From positions 171,263 to 235,262 of the forward strand of contig CAZINP010000001.1 of NCBI GenBank assembly GCA_964540635.1: DNA of 64,000 bases. The letters run 5' to 3'. The DNA comes from an uncultured Gammaproteobacteria bacterium (GTDB taxonomy: Bacteria; Patescibacteriota; Patescibacteriia; Buchananbacterales; UBA6539). Numbering within the stretch: position 1 is the first letter of the stretch; the number at the start of each line of letters is the position of its first letter. Below, piece by piece: positions 16,282-60,526 of the stretch. The position numbers and the translations under genes are program-made. The notes under the pieces are model-generated. The model worked only from the letters and a program-made list of their open reading frames with translations, made no database searches and was not told the origin of the DNA.

Positions 16282-16313
16282 TTAAATAAAAAATACGGCC
16301 GAAAATTCGGCCG

Positions 16314-16655
16314 TTAGTAAGCCGGCTGCCTTTGGCCGGCTTCTTGCATCAAGGCAATCATTTCGTCCAGGAAAAATCCCTGAGACGGATTTTTTTCTTT
16401 TAACCGTTGAGCCAAATCAAGTGCGGTGCGACCGGCGTAGTCGCGCACATGCACATTGATTTGCCAGACGGCAACCAGATCTTCAACCGCTTCGCAGATG
16501 AATTGCTCCACAGCAAAGTGAAGCAAGGTTTTGCCGGTTTGGGGATCACAAGCGTGAACGAGCTCATTCTGGTTAATGAACAGGCAGTCGCTTTTGATCT
16601 CTTCCCAAACGTCATCCCAAAGCCCATTACGGGCAAACTCAAAGACGATAATCAT
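16314..16655 (-). CDS. Ankyrin-repeat protein (GC-rich gene)
   Basis: GKTLLHFAV and GRTALDLA ankyrin signatures. GC visibly above background. Hairpin ACGGCCG-aaaatt-CGGCCGT overlaps the stop. Confidence 0.65.
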   Translation of the reverse strand: MIIVFEFARNGLWDDVWEEIKSDCLFINQNELVHACDPQTGKTLLHFAVEQFICEAVEDLVAVWQINVHVRDYAGRTALDLAQRLKEKNPSQGFFLDEMIALMQEAGQRQPAY

Positions 16656-16768
16656 AAACGCCTCCTTGTCTTTTATTCGGTTGACAAAATAATATAGTAT
16701 AAAAAATGATTTTTGTCAATAGATTTTTTATTTTTTGATCCATATTGTATAATTAAATTAAATAAAAT

Positions 16769-17530
16769 ATGAAAAAATTTATTATAAATTTAACTAAAAA
16801 AACCGGCTTGGAAGTTTTGAAGCGATTTCATTCCGACAAAACTTTTAAGATTAAAAGTAAGTCACAAATTGTAACTGCGACCGATTATTTGGCTGACAAA
16901 ATTATAGTTACTGCTTTAAAAGAAAAATTTCCCAATTACAAAATTTTAAGCGAAGAATCGGGCGGGGATAAAAAGAAATCAGACTATCTCTGGGTGGTTG
17001 ATCCGATTGACGGCACAACCAATTATTCAATCGGGAGCCCGCTTTTTGCCGTCCAGCTGGCTTTGTTTTACAAAGATCAACCGGTGATTTCTTGCGCTTA
17101 TGCGCCGGCGCTTGATGAATTATATTTTGCCGAGAAAGGCAAAGGGTTTTTTTTGAATAATAAAAAAATGCGGGTTTCTAGTACCGCTGATTTGGAAAAA
17201 TCATTTTTTCTTTTCTGCCATGGTTCAAAGCCAAAAGATATTAAACGTGCAATGAAAATTTACAGTCAAGCTAAATTAAAAACTTTAGACTCGCGCCAAT
17301 TGGGCACCGCGGCTTTGGAAACAGGTTTTGTGGCTTGTGGCCGCACTGATTGCATTGTTATTCCCGGGGCCAATGTTTGGGATATTGGTCCGGGTGTTTT
17401 ATTTATTCGGCAAGCCGGTGGCAAAGTTACGGATTTTTCCGGCAAGGAATGGAATTTAAATTCTTATGATTTGGCTGCTTCTAACGGCAAAATCCATCCC
17501 CAATTATTAAAGTTATTAAAAAATAAATAA
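16769..17530 (+). CDS. Inositol monophosphatase family protein
   Basis: WVVDPIDGTTNY motif. Confidence 0.85.
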   Translation: MKKFIINLTKKTGLEVLKRFHSDKTFKIKSKSQIVTATDYLADKIIVTALKEKFPNYKILSEESGGDKKKSDYLWVVDPIDGTTNYSIGSPLFAVQLALFYKDQPVISCAYAPALDELYFAEKGKGFFLNNKKMRVSSTADLEKSFFLFCHGSKPKDIKRAMKIYSQAKLKTLDSRQLGTAALETGFVACGRTDCIVIPGANVWDIGPGVLFIRQAGGKVTDFSGKEWNLNSYDLAASNGKIHPQLLKLLKNK

Positions 17531-17572
17531 AAAAGGGCTCCGAAGCGCGGGGCGCTCCGAAGCCTGAATCGT
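17531..17572 (-). terminator. Strong minus-strand intrinsic terminator: 13-bp stem GGCTTCGGAGCGC/GCGCTTCGGAGCC followed by CTTTTTTATTTATTT
   Basis: Derived by reverse-complementing the plus strand. The stem has two G-U pairs and a CCC loop. Confidence 0.6.
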
Positions 17573-17940
17573 CGGGGGTGAGATAATGAGCGGTGGGGAA
17601 GAAATTCCCCTACGTGTGGCCGGATGGCCACTTGCGACCGAACAGTCGGCGCAAAGTGTTCATTCCTGGATCCTCCTTACCCTGGGGGGGTGCGCCGTGT
17701 CGTCAGGCGGCCGCTTCGCCGTTCTTCTTCGAGGTGTTGCTGCCGAGGTTCGCGCCGTGCCGGGGATTCTTCGCTTTGCGGCGGGCGTGCTTCGTGGTGC
17801 CAAGGTTCGCGTTGCGGCTGTGCATATTGGGGGTCTCCTTGCGTTTTGGCTTTGCCAATCCTTGTTAGCTGCAGCACTACCTGGCTGCCACCATTATCTG
17901 AATGGTGTTGCCTTCAAGCAACGTCCGTAAAGCGGAAATT
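17573..17940 (-). ncRNA. GC-rich roughly 400-nt element with no coherent ORF; candidate structured ncRNA of unknown family
   Basis: Overlapping short ORFs in several frames on both strands. Low-complexity translations. Internal roughly 60-nt imperfect tandem duplication (CGCGAACCTYGGCA...CACGG). Ends at the terminator above. Contains AAGGAGG-N8-ATG leading into a 17-codon ORF. Confidence 0.3.
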
Positions 17941-18003
17941 AGCAAACCATAAAAAGATACTATCACACCAATTTAAATAAATCAAGATGTTCCCAATAAT
18001 TAT

Positions 18004-18225
18004 ATGGATCTGCATATTCGCGTAATCCCCAATTCAAAACATCAGGAAATCATTGAAGAAAATGATAATTTTTTAAAAATAAAAATTAAAGCCCCGGCCA
18101 AAGAGGGCAAGGCTAATAAAGAGTTGATTGAGGTTTTGGCCAAAAAGTGCAAAGTAGCTAAATCGCAGGTTGAAATTATCAAAGGCTTAAGCGGAAAAGA
18201 TAAAGTTGTGCGAATTTATGGCTAA
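18004..18225 (+). CDS. DUF167 (YggU) family protein
   Basis: IKIKAPAKEGKANKELIEVLAKKCKVAKSQVEIIKGLSGKDKVVRI matches the DUF167 pattern. Confidence 0.7.
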   Translation: MDLHIRVIPNSKHQEIIEENDNFLKIKIKAPAKEGKANKELIEVLAKKCKVAKSQVEIIKGLSGKDKVVRIYG

Positions 18226-18262: not shown

Positions 18263-18291
18263 TTGACAAAAAGTGAATAATTTGGTATAAA
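18263..18291 (+). promoter_or_regulatory. Sigma70-like promoter TTGACA-17-TATAAA
   Basis: Upstream of 18344-18922. Confidence 0.45.
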
Positions 18292-18343
18292 TAATAGTCA
18301 GGATTGTTTGTGTTGTTATGTTTCGTAAAGAAAGGAAGACGTT

Positions 18344-18922
18344 ATGCCCAAGGTGTTTGTTCTTTTTGTCTTATGTATTGCCAACATCTCCTGTGCGCAG
18401 GAGGTGGGTGTTGCCCCAGATGAGTTCTTGAAGGCTTGCCGCCAAGGGTTCCGTGCCGATTACGGTTCTGACTCGGCTGCCGCGGAGTTGGGTTGGGGAA
18501 CGTGCGAAGTTCTTTATAGTGATCGCGAGGTTGTAAACTCGCTAAGCTATGAGGAATGGGAGGCACTTCCTCGGCAAGCACCTGAAAAGGTTGCCGCCGA
18601 TTTGCCCAACACCCCTGTGGCCAGAACTGTCACGGCCAGCTGGTATGCGTGGACTGACGGCAAAGTCTTGAACGTGGTCTACAACTGCGTTTGGGGTAAT
18701 GCCGAAAAGGAATTGGTCCATGGCTGCGCCACCGGCAACGAAGAGGCTGATCGCTGGGGGGCATCCTCCAACCGCCATTTCTATGGCAAAGGCGATCGAT
18801 TTTGGTACCAGGCCAACCGGCCTTGTGTGACCAAGATCTGGCTGGGTGCTCCCGGCCAAAACGCCAAAGAGACGCTCCGGCTTCGGCTGGAGCAACTCAA
18901 AAAGCTTCGGGTGATCAAATAA
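18344..18922 (+). CDS. Secreted Cys-rich protein of unknown function (GC-rich gene)
   Basis: Signal peptide MPKVFVLFVLCIANISCA. At least eight Cys. GC visibly above background. Opposite-strand ORFs here are GC artefacts. Confidence 0.55.
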   Translation: MPKVFVLFVLCIANISCAQEVGVAPDEFLKACRQGFRADYGSDSAAAELGWGTCEVLYSDREVVNSLSYEEWEALPRQAPEKVAADLPNTPVARTVTASWYAWTDGKVLNVVYNCVWGNAEKELVHGCATGNEEADRWGASSNRHFYGKGDRFWYQANRPCVTKIWLGAPGQNAKETLRLRLEQLKKLRVIK

Positions 18923-19006: not shown

Positions 19007-22000
19007 TTACATTTGAGGATCAGGCGGTGGCGGTGGTGTCGGCGGATTGGTATTTGGATTGCAGGCATTCCAATCATTATTTCTATAGGTGCAAGGTTCG
19101 TCTGCGTTGTCTCGGTCCCTTGTGTCGACATGAACCAAACCACATCCCTCTTCAACATCTTCGGCAACTTCTTGTTCCGAATCGGTACATTCACGAATTA
19201 TATTCATTTTAGTGCCGGTGCGGCAACTCTCTATTCGATTTATTAAAGTTTCAACAGCAGGGACGTTGCAGGTTGTTGAATTATCAGAACCGGTTGAACA
19301 GCATTTCATATCTAAAGCTATTCCCGGGCCATGGTTTGGCCCATCATTGGCCCTATATGAAGTGCCAATAGTGCAACCGGGTGGCAAGATATCACAACCA
19401 TTGCTATTATCGCCATCGATGCAATCAAAGATTTCTCTAACATTTTCTAAAAATTCTTTGGTCCCGGTAATTGATGAAACATTGGGGTAGGTGGGTAAAC
19501 CGTTAACTCCCATAGTATACATTTCACTCCCATCATCTTTTAAGGTTATATCTGGATTAAAACACTTTTTGCATGCTTCAATATTATTTGGTCCACCGGC
19601 CGCACCAACAACCTCACAAAGACATTTATCGTTTGCGCGGCAAGCCTGATCTTGACCTAAGTCAGGGCAAGACCCTTCTTTGGCTACCAGCACTCTAACG
19701 TTGGTACCAATATATGGGTTATCATCGGCCGGACCGTAAATTCTTTCGGCGCAATTATCCGGGTTCTCGCCGCAAATTACCAAATCTTCACCTTTAAGTT
19801 CTCCGGGTTTTGTTGTGCCGTATTTATCTTTTTTGGCATTACACGTCAGGGTACCCCAAAAAGGAATTGTTTGCACTTTTTTACCCGAGAGCAGCTTGTT
19901 TTTTTTCAGCCTGTCTATTGGCCTATCTCCCGCACCGCCACCGGCGGCGATTTTAAAATCCGATTGAATTAAGCTTTCGTTGGCAAAACAATTTGGAACG
20001 AGCCCGCAAACCTCATCAACCCTTTGATCATAAAGAGTGTCGTAATTTATTGCGTCCTTGGGGATGGATAAAGCGATGTAATTAAAACACTTTGCGATAC
20101 CTTTTTCGCTTAGCAGTTCAGAACAATATTTTAGACTATTGGAATTACTGAAAGCTCTATCGGAACGTCGTTGAATTTCCATTAAATCAATTAAAGAAAG
20201 AGATTTGTTATAAATTAAAACCTCATCAATTGCGCCTTTAAAGTAAACTTGATTACGCCCGGCATCGCCTTTGCTGAATTCTTGCAATCCCGCCAACGAA
20301 GCAGCCTCTGAACCATCGCCAATAAAACCAAAACGGGTCAGGCTGCTGCCAAGCGGTTTATTGTGATGAACGTTTGCTATAGTTGTATCTTCTTTTCCGT
20401 CAATATAAAGTGATTTTTGACCCAGCGCGTAATTGTAAACACCGCAAACGAAATGCCATTGGTTATCATTTAGGTTATTTGTCTTGCTGTACAAATCATT
20501 AACGGAATTATCTTGAGCCGAGTGAGTTGAAAAACCAAGTTTACCGCTTGGGGTAACAAAAAGATTGTAGTATTCAGATCGGTCAAAATCAATTAGCGCC
20601 CAGTTATCAAAATCACCGCCGGTATTTTCGTTAGTCTTAAATCTGGCGCAAACCGTTAGTTCGTTGATTGAACTAATGCTGCCGCAATATTGCATGTTTA
20701 AAGCCAGGTAGTCGTTGTTGCCGTCAAAAACAATTGCTTTGTCGCCCAAACCGTTTGTAAAAACAGGGTTGGTCATGGCTTGTATCGGGTTGCTGGCCCC
20801 ATCCAAGCCGAAGAAATAAGTTTTGATATTATTACCACTTGTATCAAGAATGGAATTATTAAAATTGAAAGCGGCGATTAACCCTTGTGAGTTTTTGGCC
20901 GGCAATGGATTGCAATTGCTCAGGTATTGGCCGATTAAAAATGAGTTGTTCCAGAGCTTGAGGTTTTTGATAAAGCCTCCTTTTAACCCTTGTTGCCAAA
21001 CGCCGGACATACCGATAATCGGCCGCCCAAAATTTTTGGCAATGCCGTCTTTTTTTTCCGGCGTGTTAGTGCTGTATTCGTTGTTGTCAATCAGAATCGA
21101 CATTTCTTGAGTATTTTTATTAAAACTGCCGCTGATTTTTACCCATTGATTAAGCGGCACCTGGCTTTGATCGGCCGTAAAGATAAAGCGGGTGTTGCCG
21201 GTGTTGGCGTAAACTCTAACTTTACCGTTAGGCATTATGGCCAAAGCATTGGCGCTGCTTAAAGTGACATAGTCGGTATAGATTGTATAAGGCGAGTTCA
21301 CGTCAATGGGGTAAGAAGTCAAATAAACTTCGGCTTCAATGGTAAAAGCATCGGTTAAATTCAGTTTTTGCAGTTCGGTATGATTGTTGATCCTCAAGCG
21401 GCCGTATTCGCCGGTTGATTTATTATCAAAATACAAAAATTTTTCAGTTGAGGTTGTGGGGTGGGCGTTTTTTTGTCCGTTTTCATATATATTTTTAATT
21501 TCTTCATCGCTTAATTTTCGATCGAAAAAAGCGACTTCATCAATTTGGCCTTCAAAAGATCGGTTCTCGGTTGGGTTGGCCTGATTGCCGATTCTAAATC
21601 GGGGCGTGAGGCCGCCCGGGGAGCTGTATTCGCCCAAGCCTATCAATTGGCCGTTTAAATAACCGTAAACGATTTTTTTGCCGTCTTTCTCTTCCCAGGA
21701 CATAACCAAGTGATACCATTGGTTAAGCTCGGCTCCTTGTTTTAGGGTAATAGTTGTGCCGTATTGTTTTAGTGTGTCATCGCCTTTAACCACTCGAAAA
21801 CGGCCGGATGTTAACCATTGAATATAATATCTGTCAGAACCGGAACCAACACCCTGGATAATGTAACCGGCGTTATTATTCGCAGTTGGATAAGCCCAGG
21901 CGCTGATAGTGCCGGATTTAGGGTTGATTTTTGTATCAACTTTGCTGATATCTAGATATTGTCCAAAAGAACCAAAGCTGCAGCCTTGGCCGATAAAACC

Positions 22001-22417
22001 CGGATTATCAAGACAATTAATGCCGCCTTGCGCCACGGCCGAGAAATTATTGCCCGAGTCGTCATTTAAATTATTGTTCAGTTTCCAGTACCCAATCAGT
22101 CCCGTTAAAGTGGCCGGATAATCATTAGCGGTTTGATTTATGCTTTCCCAAAAAACTTTATTCCCATCCATGGTGGCACTTAAATTTTTGATTGAGCCGG
22201 TACTCAAAACGGTTGTTCCGGCGCCTTCGTTTAAAGAAAAACTTATCAATGGCGAGTTAAGAAAATCAGTTGATATCCTGCTTTGTCTAAAAAGAAATAT
22301 TGAATATAGAGACGAGACAATCAAAAAAGAAGTTAAAACTGTTGTTCCAAGAAAAATAAAAATCACCAGACTTGTATTGGTGATCGACCTGGTTAAAACT
22401 CCAGTAATTTTTTTCAT
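19007..22417 (-). CDS. Giant (1136-aa) surface protein with multiple LamG (concanavalin-A-like jelly-roll) domains and a Cys-rich, proline-tailed C-terminus
   Basis: N-terminal signal anchor. Repeated LamG patterns (GYWKLNNNLNDDSGNN...WYHLVMSW...YLNGQL; AAFNFNNSILDTSGNN...WHFVCGVYN...LYIDGK). C-terminal 300 aa with many Cys, ending PPTPPPPPDPQM. Confidence 0.75.
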   Translation of the reverse strand: MKKITGVLTRSITNTSLVIFIFLGTTVLTSFLIVSSLYSIFLFRQSRISTDFLNSPLISFSLNEGAGTTVLSTGSIKNLSATMDGNKVFWESINQTANDYPATLTGLIGYWKLNNNLNDDSGNNFSAVAQGGINCLDNPGFIGQGCSFGSFGQYLDISKVDTKINPKSGTISAWAYPTANNNAGYIIQGVGSGSDRYYIQWLTSGRFRVVKGDDTLKQYGTTITLKQGAELNQWYHLVMSWEEKDGKKIVYGYLNGQLIGLGEYSSPGGLTPRFRIGNQANPTENRSFEGQIDEVAFFDRKLSDEEIKNIYENGQKNAHPTTSTEKFLYFDNKSTGEYGRLRINNHTELQKLNLTDAFTIEAEVYLTSYPIDVNSPYTIYTDYVTLSSANALAIMPNGKVRVYANTGNTRFIFTADQSQVPLNQWVKISGSFNKNTQEMSILIDNNEYSTNTPEKKDGIAKNFGRPIIGMSGVWQQGLKGGFIKNLKLWNNSFLIGQYLSNCNPLPAKNSQGLIAAFNFNNSILDTSGNNIKTYFFGLDGASNPIQAMTNPVFTNGLGDKAIVFDGNNDYLALNMQYCGSISSINELTVCARFKTNENTGGDFDNWALIDFDRSEYYNLFVTPSGKLGFSTHSAQDNSVNDLYSKTNNLNDNQWHFVCGVYNYALGQKSLYIDGKEDTTIANVHHNKPLGSSLTRFGFIGDGSEAASLAGLQEFSKGDAGRNQVYFKGAIDEVLIYNKSLSLIDLMEIQRRSDRAFSNSNSLKYCSELLSEKGIAKCFNYIALSIPKDAINYDTLYDQRVDEVCGLVPNCFANESLIQSDFKIAAGGGAGDRPIDRLKKNKLLSGKKVQTIPFWGTLTCNAKKDKYGTTKPGELKGEDLVICGENPDNCAERIYGPADDNPYIGTNVRVLVAKEGSCPDLGQDQACRANDKCLCEVVGAAGGPNNIEACKKCFNPDITLKDDGSEMYTMGVNGLPTYPNVSSITGTKEFLENVREIFDCIDGDNSNGCDILPPGCTIGTSYRANDGPNHGPGIALDMKCCSTGSDNSTTCNVPAVETLINRIESCRTGTKMNIIRECTDSEQEVAEDVEEGCGLVHVDTRDRDNADEPCTYRNNDWNACNPNTNPPTPPPPPDPQM

Positions 22418-59564: not shown

Positions 59565-59951
59565 AAAAATCTATCTCTATGAAGATAGAAAATTAGTTTT
59601 TAATTGGAGCGGCTTATGTGTAAATTGCACTTAAGCCTTGAAGATATGAAATCAGGCTCAGTAAAATTACTGAGTGAATGAGTGCAAGCTAATTTTTCCG
59701 CAAGGGAAAAGGGAGTTATTTTTCACGTTTTTGGGAAAGTAATGGGGGAAATATAGCTTTTTTCCGACTGATCTGGAATCTCTTGCTCCAAACTGCTAAT
59801 TTTCTATATCCAATTTAGTTAATTACTTATTTACGATATTAGCACAAAAATGCGATTTTGGCAAGGGTTAAAATTAAGCAGAAAATTGAGTTTTTTTAAA
59901 TAAAAAAAGGGAGAGCAGAGCTTCCCTTTGGGTGTTTTTTGGCCAGCTGCT

Positions 59952-60230
59952 TTAAACCGTCGTGTTGAGCGGTCCGGTTAGAGCAAGGCCGGCGACCTCG
60001 GTTTTATGCCGGCAAGCCGGGCATTTGTGGTTTTCATTTATGAACCACAAATAGATGATTTGACCGCAAGAGCGGCAGGTGCCCTCACCTTCAAAGAGCT
60101 CAAAGACAAGGTCGTTTTTCGTCAGCGCCCTGCGGCAAGCCGGGCAGGAATGCCACAGGTTAACGTACCATTGGTAGATGATTTGGCCGCAGTGCGGGCA
60201 AAATGCCTCGCCGCGATTCAAGGTGGTCAT
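59952..60230 (-). CDS. Tandem double zinc-ribbon protein (GC-rich gene)
   Basis: Two repeats of CxxCGQIIY(Q/L)W(Y/F)...CPACR. GC visibly above background. Terminator AAGGGA...TCCCTT follows at about 59905-59940. Confidence 0.5.
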   Translation of the reverse strand: MTTLNRGEAFCPHCGQIIYQWYVNLWHSCPACRRALTKNDLVFELFEGEGTCRSCGQIIYLWFINENHKCPACRHKTEVAGLALTGPLNTTV

Positions 60231-60526
60231 GGCTTATCCTCCATGGTTATTGCCAAAAAACGTTTTATGCAAAGATCTAAAAAAGCCAACCTTTTTGGGG
60301 AAGAGATTGGCTTTTTTAGACCAAAAAAACTCTTGGGCAAGAGTCTTTTTCATCTTTGTTATCTTCCCCTTATTTGTTTGCGTAAAGCAAACGGGCTGAA
60401 TTTAGCACCAATCCCATGGGGACGGTTGCCGGCTGCCATTGGGTCAGTTCCCTTAGCAAGCAGCACTCTTGATAACCTCTTTGTTGTTAATGTATAAAAA
60501 TATTTTAGAGCAAAGACAATGATTTG

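Follow-up and report, generated by a model that had tools for sequence, protein, structure and literature searches.

An orphan, moron-like candidate transcription unit with two micro-ORFs and a covarying 3′ domain in one genus of Patescibacteria

Introduction

Phage "morons", as reportedly set out by Juhala et al. in 2000, are independent promoter-gene-terminator units situated between genes that are adjacent in related genomes. Here we describe a GC-rich element that resembles such units but lies in the chromosome of an uncultured bacterium, within a 64-kb stretch of contig CAZINP010000001.1 (assembly GCA_964540635.1; hereafter the window), at positions 17531–17940 between a gene of the inositol monophosphatase family (IMPase) and a DUF167 (YggU) gene. 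Like a moron, the element lies between genes that in relatives are neighbors or overlap, has its own terminator and a promoter-like site (the promoter being proposed from a conserved extended -10), differs in composition from its flanks, and is one of several units side by side (an ankyrin cassette, the element itself and a gene for 192 residues). Unlike a moron, it is not in a phage or prophage but among housekeeping genes of a bacterial chromosome (histidine kinase, Metallophos, IMPase and DUF167, with trigger factor and VanW in relatives), its cargo is two micro open reading frames (ORFs) and hairpins rather than an ordinary gene, and no mobility machinery or target duplication was identified at the element.

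Other described systems share some of its features. Leader-peptide transcription attenuators of the trpL and ermCL type resemble the element in having a short ORF with a ribosome-binding site laid over hairpins and followed by an intrinsic terminator, with the length and a few codons conserved but not the peptide. They differ in that the element lacks a downstream gene, a conserved alternative pairing and a run of regulatory codons, and its short ORF (ORF2) is at the 3′ rather than the 5′ end of the predicted transcript. The dual-function small RNAs treated in one review (PMC12310071) include SgrS/SgrT, RNAIII/delta-haemolysin and SR1/SR1P. The predicted transcript of the element is likewise a few hundred nucleotides in length, with its own putative promoter, a terminator, ORFs of fewer than 50 codons, conserved RNA structure and a conserved single-stranded stretch by the terminator. 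However, it has no sequence or Rfam relationship to those RNAs, it has two ORFs and not one, and a base-pairing role is only a candidate. Reports of the GC-rich intergenic region (GC-IGR) and DIMPL approach (PMC6429828, PMC8723152) include the selection of such regions in AT-rich genomes as candidates for noncoding RNA (ncRNA). The element is comparable to those candidates in its long GC-rich intergenic region, part of which is a covarying structure, but its GC excess is mostly at third codon positions in an unstructured segment, and no motif family extends beyond one genus.

Based on sequence comparisons, the element is best described as an orphan, moron-like, lineage-specific transcription unit predicted on the minus strand from ~17985 to 17526. 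An earlier, sequence-only reading had proposed a structured ncRNA of unknown family ending in a strong minus-strand terminator. That proposal was partly supported: the strand, the terminator and the lack of a known family were as it said, whereas the description as a structured ncRNA was right only for the 3′ third.

Results

The Element Is an Insertion at the IMPase/DUF167 Junction

Homologues of the IMPase place the organism in Patescibacteria, with the closest named relatives being Candidatus Buchananbacteria at ~65%. In more distant relatives, IMPase and DUF167 overlap (L005) or are separated by 2 nt (L008 and L009), 17 nt (L018) or ~100 AT-rich nt (L010 and L017), which identifies the element as an insertion. 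Two further assemblies of the window species, L001 and L002, were found by exact-protein look-ups with the flanking genes; they are ~99% and ~96% identical to the window overall, respectively. In addition, a sister species whose IMPase is 81% identical in amino acids and 79% in nucleotides holds a homologous element at the same site, represented by L007 (cut at its 5′ end), the identical and complete L014 and L015, and L028 (promoter end only). The comparative set comprised four distinct sequences from two species. The possibility raised from the sequence alone, that relatives carry a homologous island at this junction with compensatory substitutions, was borne out in the sister species, where such changes were found in two hairpins (hp0 and hp2) and the terminator.

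The composition of the island is as unusual as was first noted. GC content is 59.8% at 17531–17940 against 38.7% over the window, and 64.6% in the core of the element against 35–37.5% in the flanking genes; the GC-rich intergenic region is 473 nt long in an AT-rich genome. The whole unit is larger than the segment originally delimited, as the predicted promoter extends it to ~17985 and the T-run to ~17526.

Start Regions, ORF Lengths and Stops Are Conserved

Comparison of the window and sister species indicated that the start signal, frame and stop of both minus-strand ORFs had been conserved across species. Nucleotide identity between the two was ~57% in ORF1, ~50% in the first 11 codons of ORF2, 86–90% in its last 7 codons and 75% in the terminator, while the IMPase genes of the same species are 79.5% identical overall and only ~60% identical at third positions. 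The best-conserved stretches of the 5′ two-thirds of the element were the two blocks made up of a ribosome-binding site and ATG (GGAG(G)ACCCCC..AUG and AGGAGG-N7-10-AUG). The ORF1 start block, GGAG(G)ACCCCC(A/C)(A)UAUG, was common to the window, L014 and L007. In the ORF2 block, AGGAGG was kept in all four variants at a spacing of 7, 8 or 10 nt from the ATG; the AAGGAGG-N8-ATG and 17-codon ORF that had been noted in the window correspond to this block and ORF2.

ORF1 has 40 codons in the window, 47 in L007 and 41 in L014 (123, 144 and 126 nt), with homologous start context and stop position, and L007 and L014 differ in this ORF by an in-frame 18-nt indel. ORF2 has 17 codons in each of the four variants (MNTLRRLFGRKWPSGHT in the window, MSTMGRSFCRKWPSGHT in L001/L002, MTKAGRMRVIGWPAGHT in L007 and MTKTRRMCVIGWPAGHT in L014/L015), even though its first 33 nt are ~50% diverged. 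Its first 11 codons are variable and its C-terminus is WP(S/A)GHT, with a synonymous ACG to ACT change present, and its stop, TAG or TAA, has survived a 2-nt insertion.

The upstream region also showed conservation. The extended -10 of the putative promoter P1, TGATAnnAT, was kept in the window, L014/L015 and L028, and its -35 in the window and L014. P1, which was read from the sequence, has 8 of 12 consensus matches and did not appear in the output of a consensus promoter scan; its predicted transcription start is near 17950. The first ~40 nt of the proposed 5′ untranslated region were conserved (AUGGyUwGCyAAUUUCC...UUwACGGAC, in alignments including L028). A second promoter-like site present in the window species only is a less likely candidate than P1, as the region is deleted or divergent in L014.

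ORF1 Has Third-Position GC Periodicity

GC content at third codon positions (GC3) of ORF1 was 0.90, 0.77 and 0.73 in three lineages, compared with no more than 0.55 at positions 1 and 2 (Fisher p = 3e-4, 2.5e-4 and 2e-3, respectively). Host genes have a GC3 of ~0.35, and that of ORF1 was not shifted towards the host value. Together with the conserved ribosome-binding site, ATG and stop of both frames, this periodicity argues against the original deduction that the segment is ORF-incoherent and hence noncoding. The underlying observation was nevertheless accurate, since ORFs of 47–118 amino acids do overlap in five frames, on both strands, across the island. The minus strand of the ORF1 segment contains 4–9% T over three lineages, and it is because of the 4% T in the core of the window's element that stop codons are rare on both of its strands; base composition thus explains the many open frames.

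Abundant CGAAG words had also been remarked upon, and six CGAAG/CTTCG words were seen against ~0.9 expected from composition. Four of these are NCG-AAG or GAA-GCG codon pairs of ORF1 and the other two are the arms of the terminator. In contrast, the imperfect tandem duplication of ~60 nt perceived in the first reading was not recovered. Tandem Repeats Finder gave no tandem repeat in the island, the sole repeat found there was a 17-nt direct repeat (88% identical) at a spacing of 57 nt, and the identity at offset 57 was 24/57, which codon-shuffled controls reach as well (P = 0.65).

The predicted ORF1 peptide of the window is basic (net +8) and hydrophilic, its RNA is U-poor, and its AlphaFold2 model had no secondary structure (pTM 0.15). 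The ORF2 peptide, also hydrophilic and basic, ends WP(S/A)GHT in all variants. A type I toxin was rejected for these peptides, both being hydrophilic and basic and not of the hydrophobic membrane type. A precursor of a ribosomally synthesized and post-translationally modified peptide was rejected as well, as there were no Pfam domains of modifying enzymes or transporters among the neighbors.

RNA Structure Is Confined to the 3′ Third

Folding analyses of the region from the ORF2 ATG to the T-run showed that it folds better than its shuffles in all four variants, both with the terminator (z = -6.3, -4.1, -3.9 and -4.2) and without it (z = -4.1, -3.1, -1.6 and -2.6), and one four-hairpin fold was common to all variants. 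The folding of the whole element was not unusual (z = -1.9, -1.1 and -2.1). The ORF1 segment gave z = +2.5 in the window, where 200 of 200 shuffles were at least as stable, and +0.2 in the sister species. The structured ncRNA of the sequence-only reading was thus upheld by stability and hp0 covariation in the 3′ third, and was not upheld for the ORF1 segment or the element as a whole.

Covariation support was likewise confined to hp0, hp2 and the terminator. Pairing in hp0 was kept in 31 of 32 cells, and six of its eight pairs were altered on both sides, counts that represent few events (four sequences from two species), although the alignment behind them is free of gaps and has the ATG and hp1 as anchors. 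A value of 31 was reached in none of 3000 column shuffles (the maximum was 30, once), and slid controls paired in 35–49% of cells. The G-U pairs of hp0 fit only a minus-strand RNA. The UGGCC/GGCCA stem of hp1 was predicted in every single-sequence fold and is invariant in all variants, and therefore offers no covariation. In the sister species, hp2 is AGGGUAA-AGUU-UUACCCU, with a G-C to U-A compensatory change and a longer stem, and in L007 and L014 several changes in the terminator are of the wobble or compensatory type. The terminator itself is as described in the first reading, with a 13-bp stem and a T6 run; on the transcribed strand its G+C-rich stem-loop leads into a U-run, making it an intrinsic terminator, and it adjoins the IMPase stop codon (17528–17530). 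A terminator scan listed none on the plus strand 3′ of IMPase. No site complementary to the C/U-rich linker that precedes the terminator was found elsewhere in the window.

A Hypervariable Patch Overlies the Start of ORF2

Across the element, L001 and L002 differ from the window by a 2-nt indel in the terminator loop, one substitution at 17991 and the differences in a 62-nt patch (17639–17700), which contains hp0. Within the patch there are 27 differences and two single-base indels, compared with ~1% difference elsewhere. These changes leave ribosome-binding site 2, the ATG and the 17-codon frame of ORF2 intact, and the two indels are outside both minus-strand ORFs, yet they break the frame of a plus-strand ORF. 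Outside the patch, the element has 3 within-species differences, compared with ~10.7 if it had diverged at the rate of IMPase (Poisson P = 0.006).

The best explanation for this 62-nt allele swap is recombination over a short tract with a diverged allele, because the swap includes indels and affects all four bases, the window contains no template copy and both alleles are found in independent assemblies. A variable region of a diversity-generating retroelement was rejected, based on the indels, the changes at all four bases and there being no second copy in the window. An invertible segment was also rejected.

No Homologues Were Found in the Libraries Searched

Rfam 15 was searched with the region at E ≤ 10 and with the entire window at gathering thresholds, and neither search identified a family for the element (including RNase P, tmRNA, SRP, 6S, OLE, ROOL, HEARO and riboswitches), in agreement with the first reading, which had looked for RNase P, tmRNA and SRP RNA motifs and left the family unassigned. 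The sole weak match was a chance XIST_A_REPEAT outside the element (E 4.4). Neither the six-frame ORFs nor the sister-species ORF1 had a match in Pfam, NCBIfam, PHROGs or PDB sequences. No homologue of ORF1 was found in tblastn-confirmed scans of GTDB genomes, IMG/VR and JGI metagenomes, and blastn and tblastn searches of phages and plasmids identified no homologue and no phage or PHROG match. There was no second copy of the element in the window or in related loci, either by blastn-short or with our own covariance model.

Searches for further loci with the plus-strand ORF as query gave strain-level matches only, and a DNA pattern for the end of ORF2 recovered from metagenomes only L007 and two chance loci. 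A GC-rich metagenome contig, L011, has AAGGAG-N4-ATG, a short hairpin and the same TGGCCAcCCGGCCACACcTAG at 390–450, with the ATG out of frame with WPxGHT. Its score of 29 bits with our covariance model comes nearly all from the pattern by which it was retrieved, and we judged it a chance match. The pattern GGAGG...ATG-N33-TGGCC-N4-GGCCA gave nine chance matches in viral contigs, inside longer or interrupted ORFs. The coordinates of the element's parts and of other features are given in Table 1.

Table 1. Features of the element, in 5′ to 3′ order on the minus strand, and of its surroundings (window coordinates).
Feature	Position	Strand	Details
Promoter P1 (predicted)	17985..17957	-	-35 TTGATT 17985..17980, 17-nt spacer, TG 17965..17964, -10 TAGTAT 17962..17957
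5′ untranslated region (predicted)	17826..17950	-	~125 nt; ~98 nt in L014
Second promoter-like site	17893..17921	-	TTGCTT-17-GATAAT; window species only
Ribosome-binding site 1	17835..17840	-	AAGGAG, then ACCCCCAAT (N9), then ATG
ORF1	17825..17703	-	40 codons, 40 aa: MHSRNANLGTTKHARRKAKNPRHGANLGSNTSKKNGEAAA
Hypervariable patch	17639..17700	strand-neutral	62 nt; covers inter-ORF spacer and ORF2 codons 1–9
Inter-ORF spacer	17664..17702	-	39 nt, C-run and ribosome-binding site 2
Ribosome-binding site 2	17678..17672	-	AAGGAGG
ORF2	17663..17610	-	17 codons: MNTLRRLFGRKWPSGHT; AAGGAGG-N8-ATG start
Peptide stretches named for predicted products			MHSRNANLGTTK..., ...FGR, K-WPSGHT
Hairpin hp0	17653..17633	-	8 bp, single-nucleotide bulge, 4-nt loop; in ORF2 codons 4–11
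Hairpin hp1	17631..17616	-	GUGGCC-AUCC-GGCCAC; same bases as codons for (K)WPSGH
Hairpin hp2	17610..17595	-	GGGGAA-UUUC-UUCCCC; begins at last base of ORF2 stop codon
C/U-rich linker	17565..17594	-	30 nt, ACCGCUCAUUAUCUCACCCCCGACGAUUCA; conserved core CGCUCwUUAUyUyA; unpaired in predicted folds
Intrinsic terminator	17529..17564	-	stem 17564..17536, 13 bp (9 G-C), 3-nt CCC loop, T6 17534..17529
IMPase gene (left flank)	16769–17530	+	Pfam PF00459 Inositol_P, E 1.4e-55
DUF167 (YggU) gene (right flank)	18004–18225	+	Pfam PF02594, E 2.3e-24
Ankyrin cassette	16719..16290	-	TTGACA-17-TATATT promoter, AAGGAGG-N5-ATG, 113-aa ORF 16655..16314 (GC 49%), terminator CGGCCGAATTTTCGGCCG and T-run
Third GC-rich unit	18263–18922	+	TTGACA-17-TATAAA, AAGGAAG, 192-aa ORF 18344–18922; 55% GC
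LamG-domain gene	22417..19007	-	1136 aa
HU-like gene, ribosome-binding site	57196	-	AAGGAG-N7-ATG
SAM riboswitch	60478..60356	-	44.5 bits; region 59950–60478

Discussion

We regard it as about an even call that the element is a bicistronic mRNA for two micro-proteins, in which the structured 3′ domain stabilizes the RNA and modulates translation of ORF2 and may add a regulatory role. The element was inserted between IMPase and DUF167 in an ancestor of one genus of Patescibacteria, and its extended -10 promoter would yield an RNA of ~420 nt. A strong ribosome-binding site would direct translation of ORF1 into a hydrophilic, mostly basic peptide of 40–47 residues with no predicted fold, whose composition and boundaries, but not its sequence, have been kept. 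A second strong site would direct translation of ORF2 into a basic peptide of 17 residues that invariably ends in WPxGHT. In its last ~140 nt, the RNA would form hp0, hp1, hp2, the single-stranded C/U-rich linker and the terminator, and this tail would most likely stabilize the 3′ end and tune ORF2 translation, and may confer a second, regulatory role. The points that speak for this unit are the presence of the insertion at this spot in both species, the conserved terminator and promoter -10, both start blocks, the ORF lengths, the synonymous and stop-to-stop changes in ORF2, the GC3 excess, the unstructured ORF1, the placement of the patch indels outside the ORFs, the similar construction of neighboring cassettes and the few within-species differences outside the patch.

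A number of observations weigh against translation of the element. A protein signal of the dN/dS type, named in the sequence-only reading as the mark of a coding frame, did not appear: substitutions between ORF1 of L007 and L014 are spread evenly over codon positions with no signature of purifying selection, and ~10 were non-synonymous to 3 synonymous when read by eye from the alignment. The window and sister ORF1 peptides barely align, and as other frames score equally, frame-by-frame protein conservation is uninformative. The net charge of the L007 peptide is only +2, and a full HMMER scan of 1.84 billion protein representatives contained no ORF1 homologue, with a word-index search also being empty. 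Depletion of T alone holds three frames (two minus, one plus) open in three lineages, and open frames are therefore weak evidence. For ORF2, hp0 starts 11 nt past the ATG and would hamper initiation, its covariation reflects selection on the RNA and not on the peptide, and the invariant WPxGH codons are the invariant hp1 stem, making the constraints on peptide and hairpin inseparable. In addition, none of the 43 host ORFs of at least 150 amino acids in the window has AGGAG, GGAGG or GAGGA upstream, their leaders being A/T-rich, and roughly half of Parcubacteria have reportedly lost the 16S anti-Shine-Dalgarno motif (PMC9297842); the window itself contains no 16S rRNA. Canonical ribosome-binding sites occur in the window as exceptions, at an HU-like gene and in the GC-rich cassettes, and the HU gene and ankyrin cassette suggest that the host is able to use AGGAG-type sites.

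Several of these points would be accommodated if the element were instead a noncoding regulatory RNA, which we consider clearly less probable than a bicistronic mRNA, although it is the alternative to be taken most seriously. Its 3′ module would work either in trans, by way of the linker or variable hairpin, or in cis as an antisense to read-through from IMPase to DUF167, and the GGAGG and AUG blocks would be 30S-binding or stabilizer elements. STAB-SD of Bacillus is a precedent for blocks of the GGAGG type as stabilizers. A noncoding role would fit a 3′ domain that beats its shuffles in all variants, the strong covariation of hp0, the compensatory changes in hp2 and the terminator, and the conserved core of the linker. 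It would also fit the unconserved peptide sequences and host genes without such ribosome-binding sites, while the hypervariable yet structured hairpin resembles a specificity determinant, and with no plus-strand terminator listed after IMPase an antisense overlap with read-through is plausible. However, the element has no Rfam match and the linker no target in the window, and a pure ncRNA leaves unexplained why the GC-richest part, the 123-nt ORF1 segment, is unstructured and has codon-phase GC periodicity in three lineages. A spacing that varies over 7–10 nt between two invariant motifs is also typical of real start sites. Improbable, in our opinion, is a switch of the leader-peptide kind, in which translation of ORF2 across hp0 and hp1 to hp2 would set whether the terminator forms and so gate antisense read-through into IMPase. 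Its geometry is attenuator-like, with a strong ribosome-binding site, a 17-codon ORF over hairpins and a terminator ~45 nt past the stop, and the length and C-terminal codons of ORF2 are conserved while its N-terminus is variable. Yet there is no co-oriented gene downstream, where the T-run adjoins the stop codon of the convergent IMPase, inspection revealed no conserved antiterminator pairing (CGCUC of the linker and GAGCG of the terminator pair in the window species only) and no regulatory codon run, and ORF1 would be unexplained.

The island could also be a decaying, non-functional remnant of horizontally acquired GC-rich DNA. Its atypical composition, the lack of homologues and its location in a hot spot for foreign cassettes are consistent with this, as is the near-neutral divergence of ORF1 between L007 and L014, whose 87% identity in aligned columns equals that of IMPase third positions. 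We nevertheless consider decay unlikely, as two species that are only ~60% identical at IMPase third positions have both kept the element at this site, its GC3 is not drifting to the host value, and compensatory changes preserve pairing in hp0, hp2 and the terminator. In addition, both start regions, the length of ORF2 (17 codons) and the -10 of the promoter are conserved, and within-species divergence outside the patch is below that of IMPase. Least probable of all is that the real gene is a plus-strand ORF co-oriented with IMPase and DUF167. Such an ORF is called by gene callers (114 residues in the NCBI record, 130 in L002 and 110 in L014/L015), and its frame is open in the window, L007 and L014. 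However, two single-base indels shift the frame of its ~80 C-terminal residues in L001/L002, its start is not conserved (ATG in the window, AAG in L014), its GC peaks at codon position 1 and not 3, it has the composition of an antisense shadow and no homologue beyond strain level, and the predicted promoter, both ribosome-binding sites and the terminator point the opposite way. Judged from its sequence, the ORF of 110–130 residues is a spurious antisense shadow of the minus-strand unit.

Beyond a bicistronic mRNA of its own kind, the element may represent an undescribed class of translated regulatory RNA in Patescibacteria, although we hold this extension doubtful. In such a class, a strongly initiated mini-ORF would be combined with a hairpin that is swapped between strains, with its pairing maintained, as a specificity determinant (for a partner RNA, a host or a phage) with its alleles under balancing selection, and the element would be one of a set of imported GC-rich cassettes with strong ribosome-binding sites in a genome where such sites are otherwise hardly used.

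The importance of the element is modest, and it is a curiosity, not a breakthrough. It does illustrate that a GC-rich intergenic island in an AT-rich genome of the candidate phyla radiation need not be a structured RNA, as most of the GC here is at third codon positions of a tiny unannotated ORF and only the 3′ tail truly covaries. Gene callers either miss the element or annotate the spurious antisense ORF. The locus also exemplifies the acquisition by reduced genomes of small promoter-ORF-terminator units of foreign appearance, placed between housekeeping genes, and hp0 is a compact case in which compensatory changes have maintained a hairpin although 99%-identical strains differ by an allele swap. 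If a function were established for the peptides or the RNA, they would join the few small genes that have been characterized in Patescibacteria.

Neighboring Units and Other Observations in the Window

The element is one of three inserted units side by side, the others being the ankyrin cassette and the 192-aa gene. The ORF of the ankyrin cassette has weak matches to ankyrin repeats, including models of Legionella/Coxiella-type Ank effectors of the type IV secretion system (E ~4e-4, far below cut-offs). The 192-aa ORF of the third GC-rich unit has a signal-peptide-like N-terminus and no Pfam, NCBIfam, PHROG or plasmid match.

In L016, whose IMPase is 66% identical, the IMPase/DUF167 junction holds an unrelated cassette (L016 3263–3767, minus strand) with AGGAGGACGGAAATG, AGGAGG, a 122-aa ORF with two hydrophobic helices (membrane) and its own terminator. 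The cassette is 45.5% GC in a 33.7% GC contig, and its start region is like that of ORF2 in L014 (AGGAGGA..CGGAAATG). It was rejected as a homologue of the element, as the similarity ends at the shared flank. The ankyrin and L016 cassettes are built like the element but have longer ORFs (113 and 122 aa) and look like ordinary protein genes.

Genes for Y1_Tnp, the tyrosine transposase family associated with IS200 and REP sequences, were found between Metallophos and IMPase in L008 (2926–3504), L010 (2854–3504) and L018 (2070–2504), the same slot that the ankyrin cassette occupies in the window, and this part of the locus is therefore a hot spot for DNA of mobile or foreign origin. In L016 and L017, Metallophos lies directly next to IMPase. 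On the sister-species contig L028, the interval between DUF167 and the promoter of the element contains short direct repeats resembling GCGAGATAAGC (150–230).

Elsewhere in the window, a SAM riboswitch whose score only just exceeds the gathering threshold precedes GGAGGA-N6-ATG and a GC-rich (54%) ORF for 92 residues, Cys-rich and zinc-ribbon-like, which is an unusual neighbor for an S-box. In the LamG-domain gene, the segment 20600–21700 is ~20% divergent between the window and L002 against a background of ~1%, and appears to be a part of a giant surface-type protein that has recombined or is diversifying.

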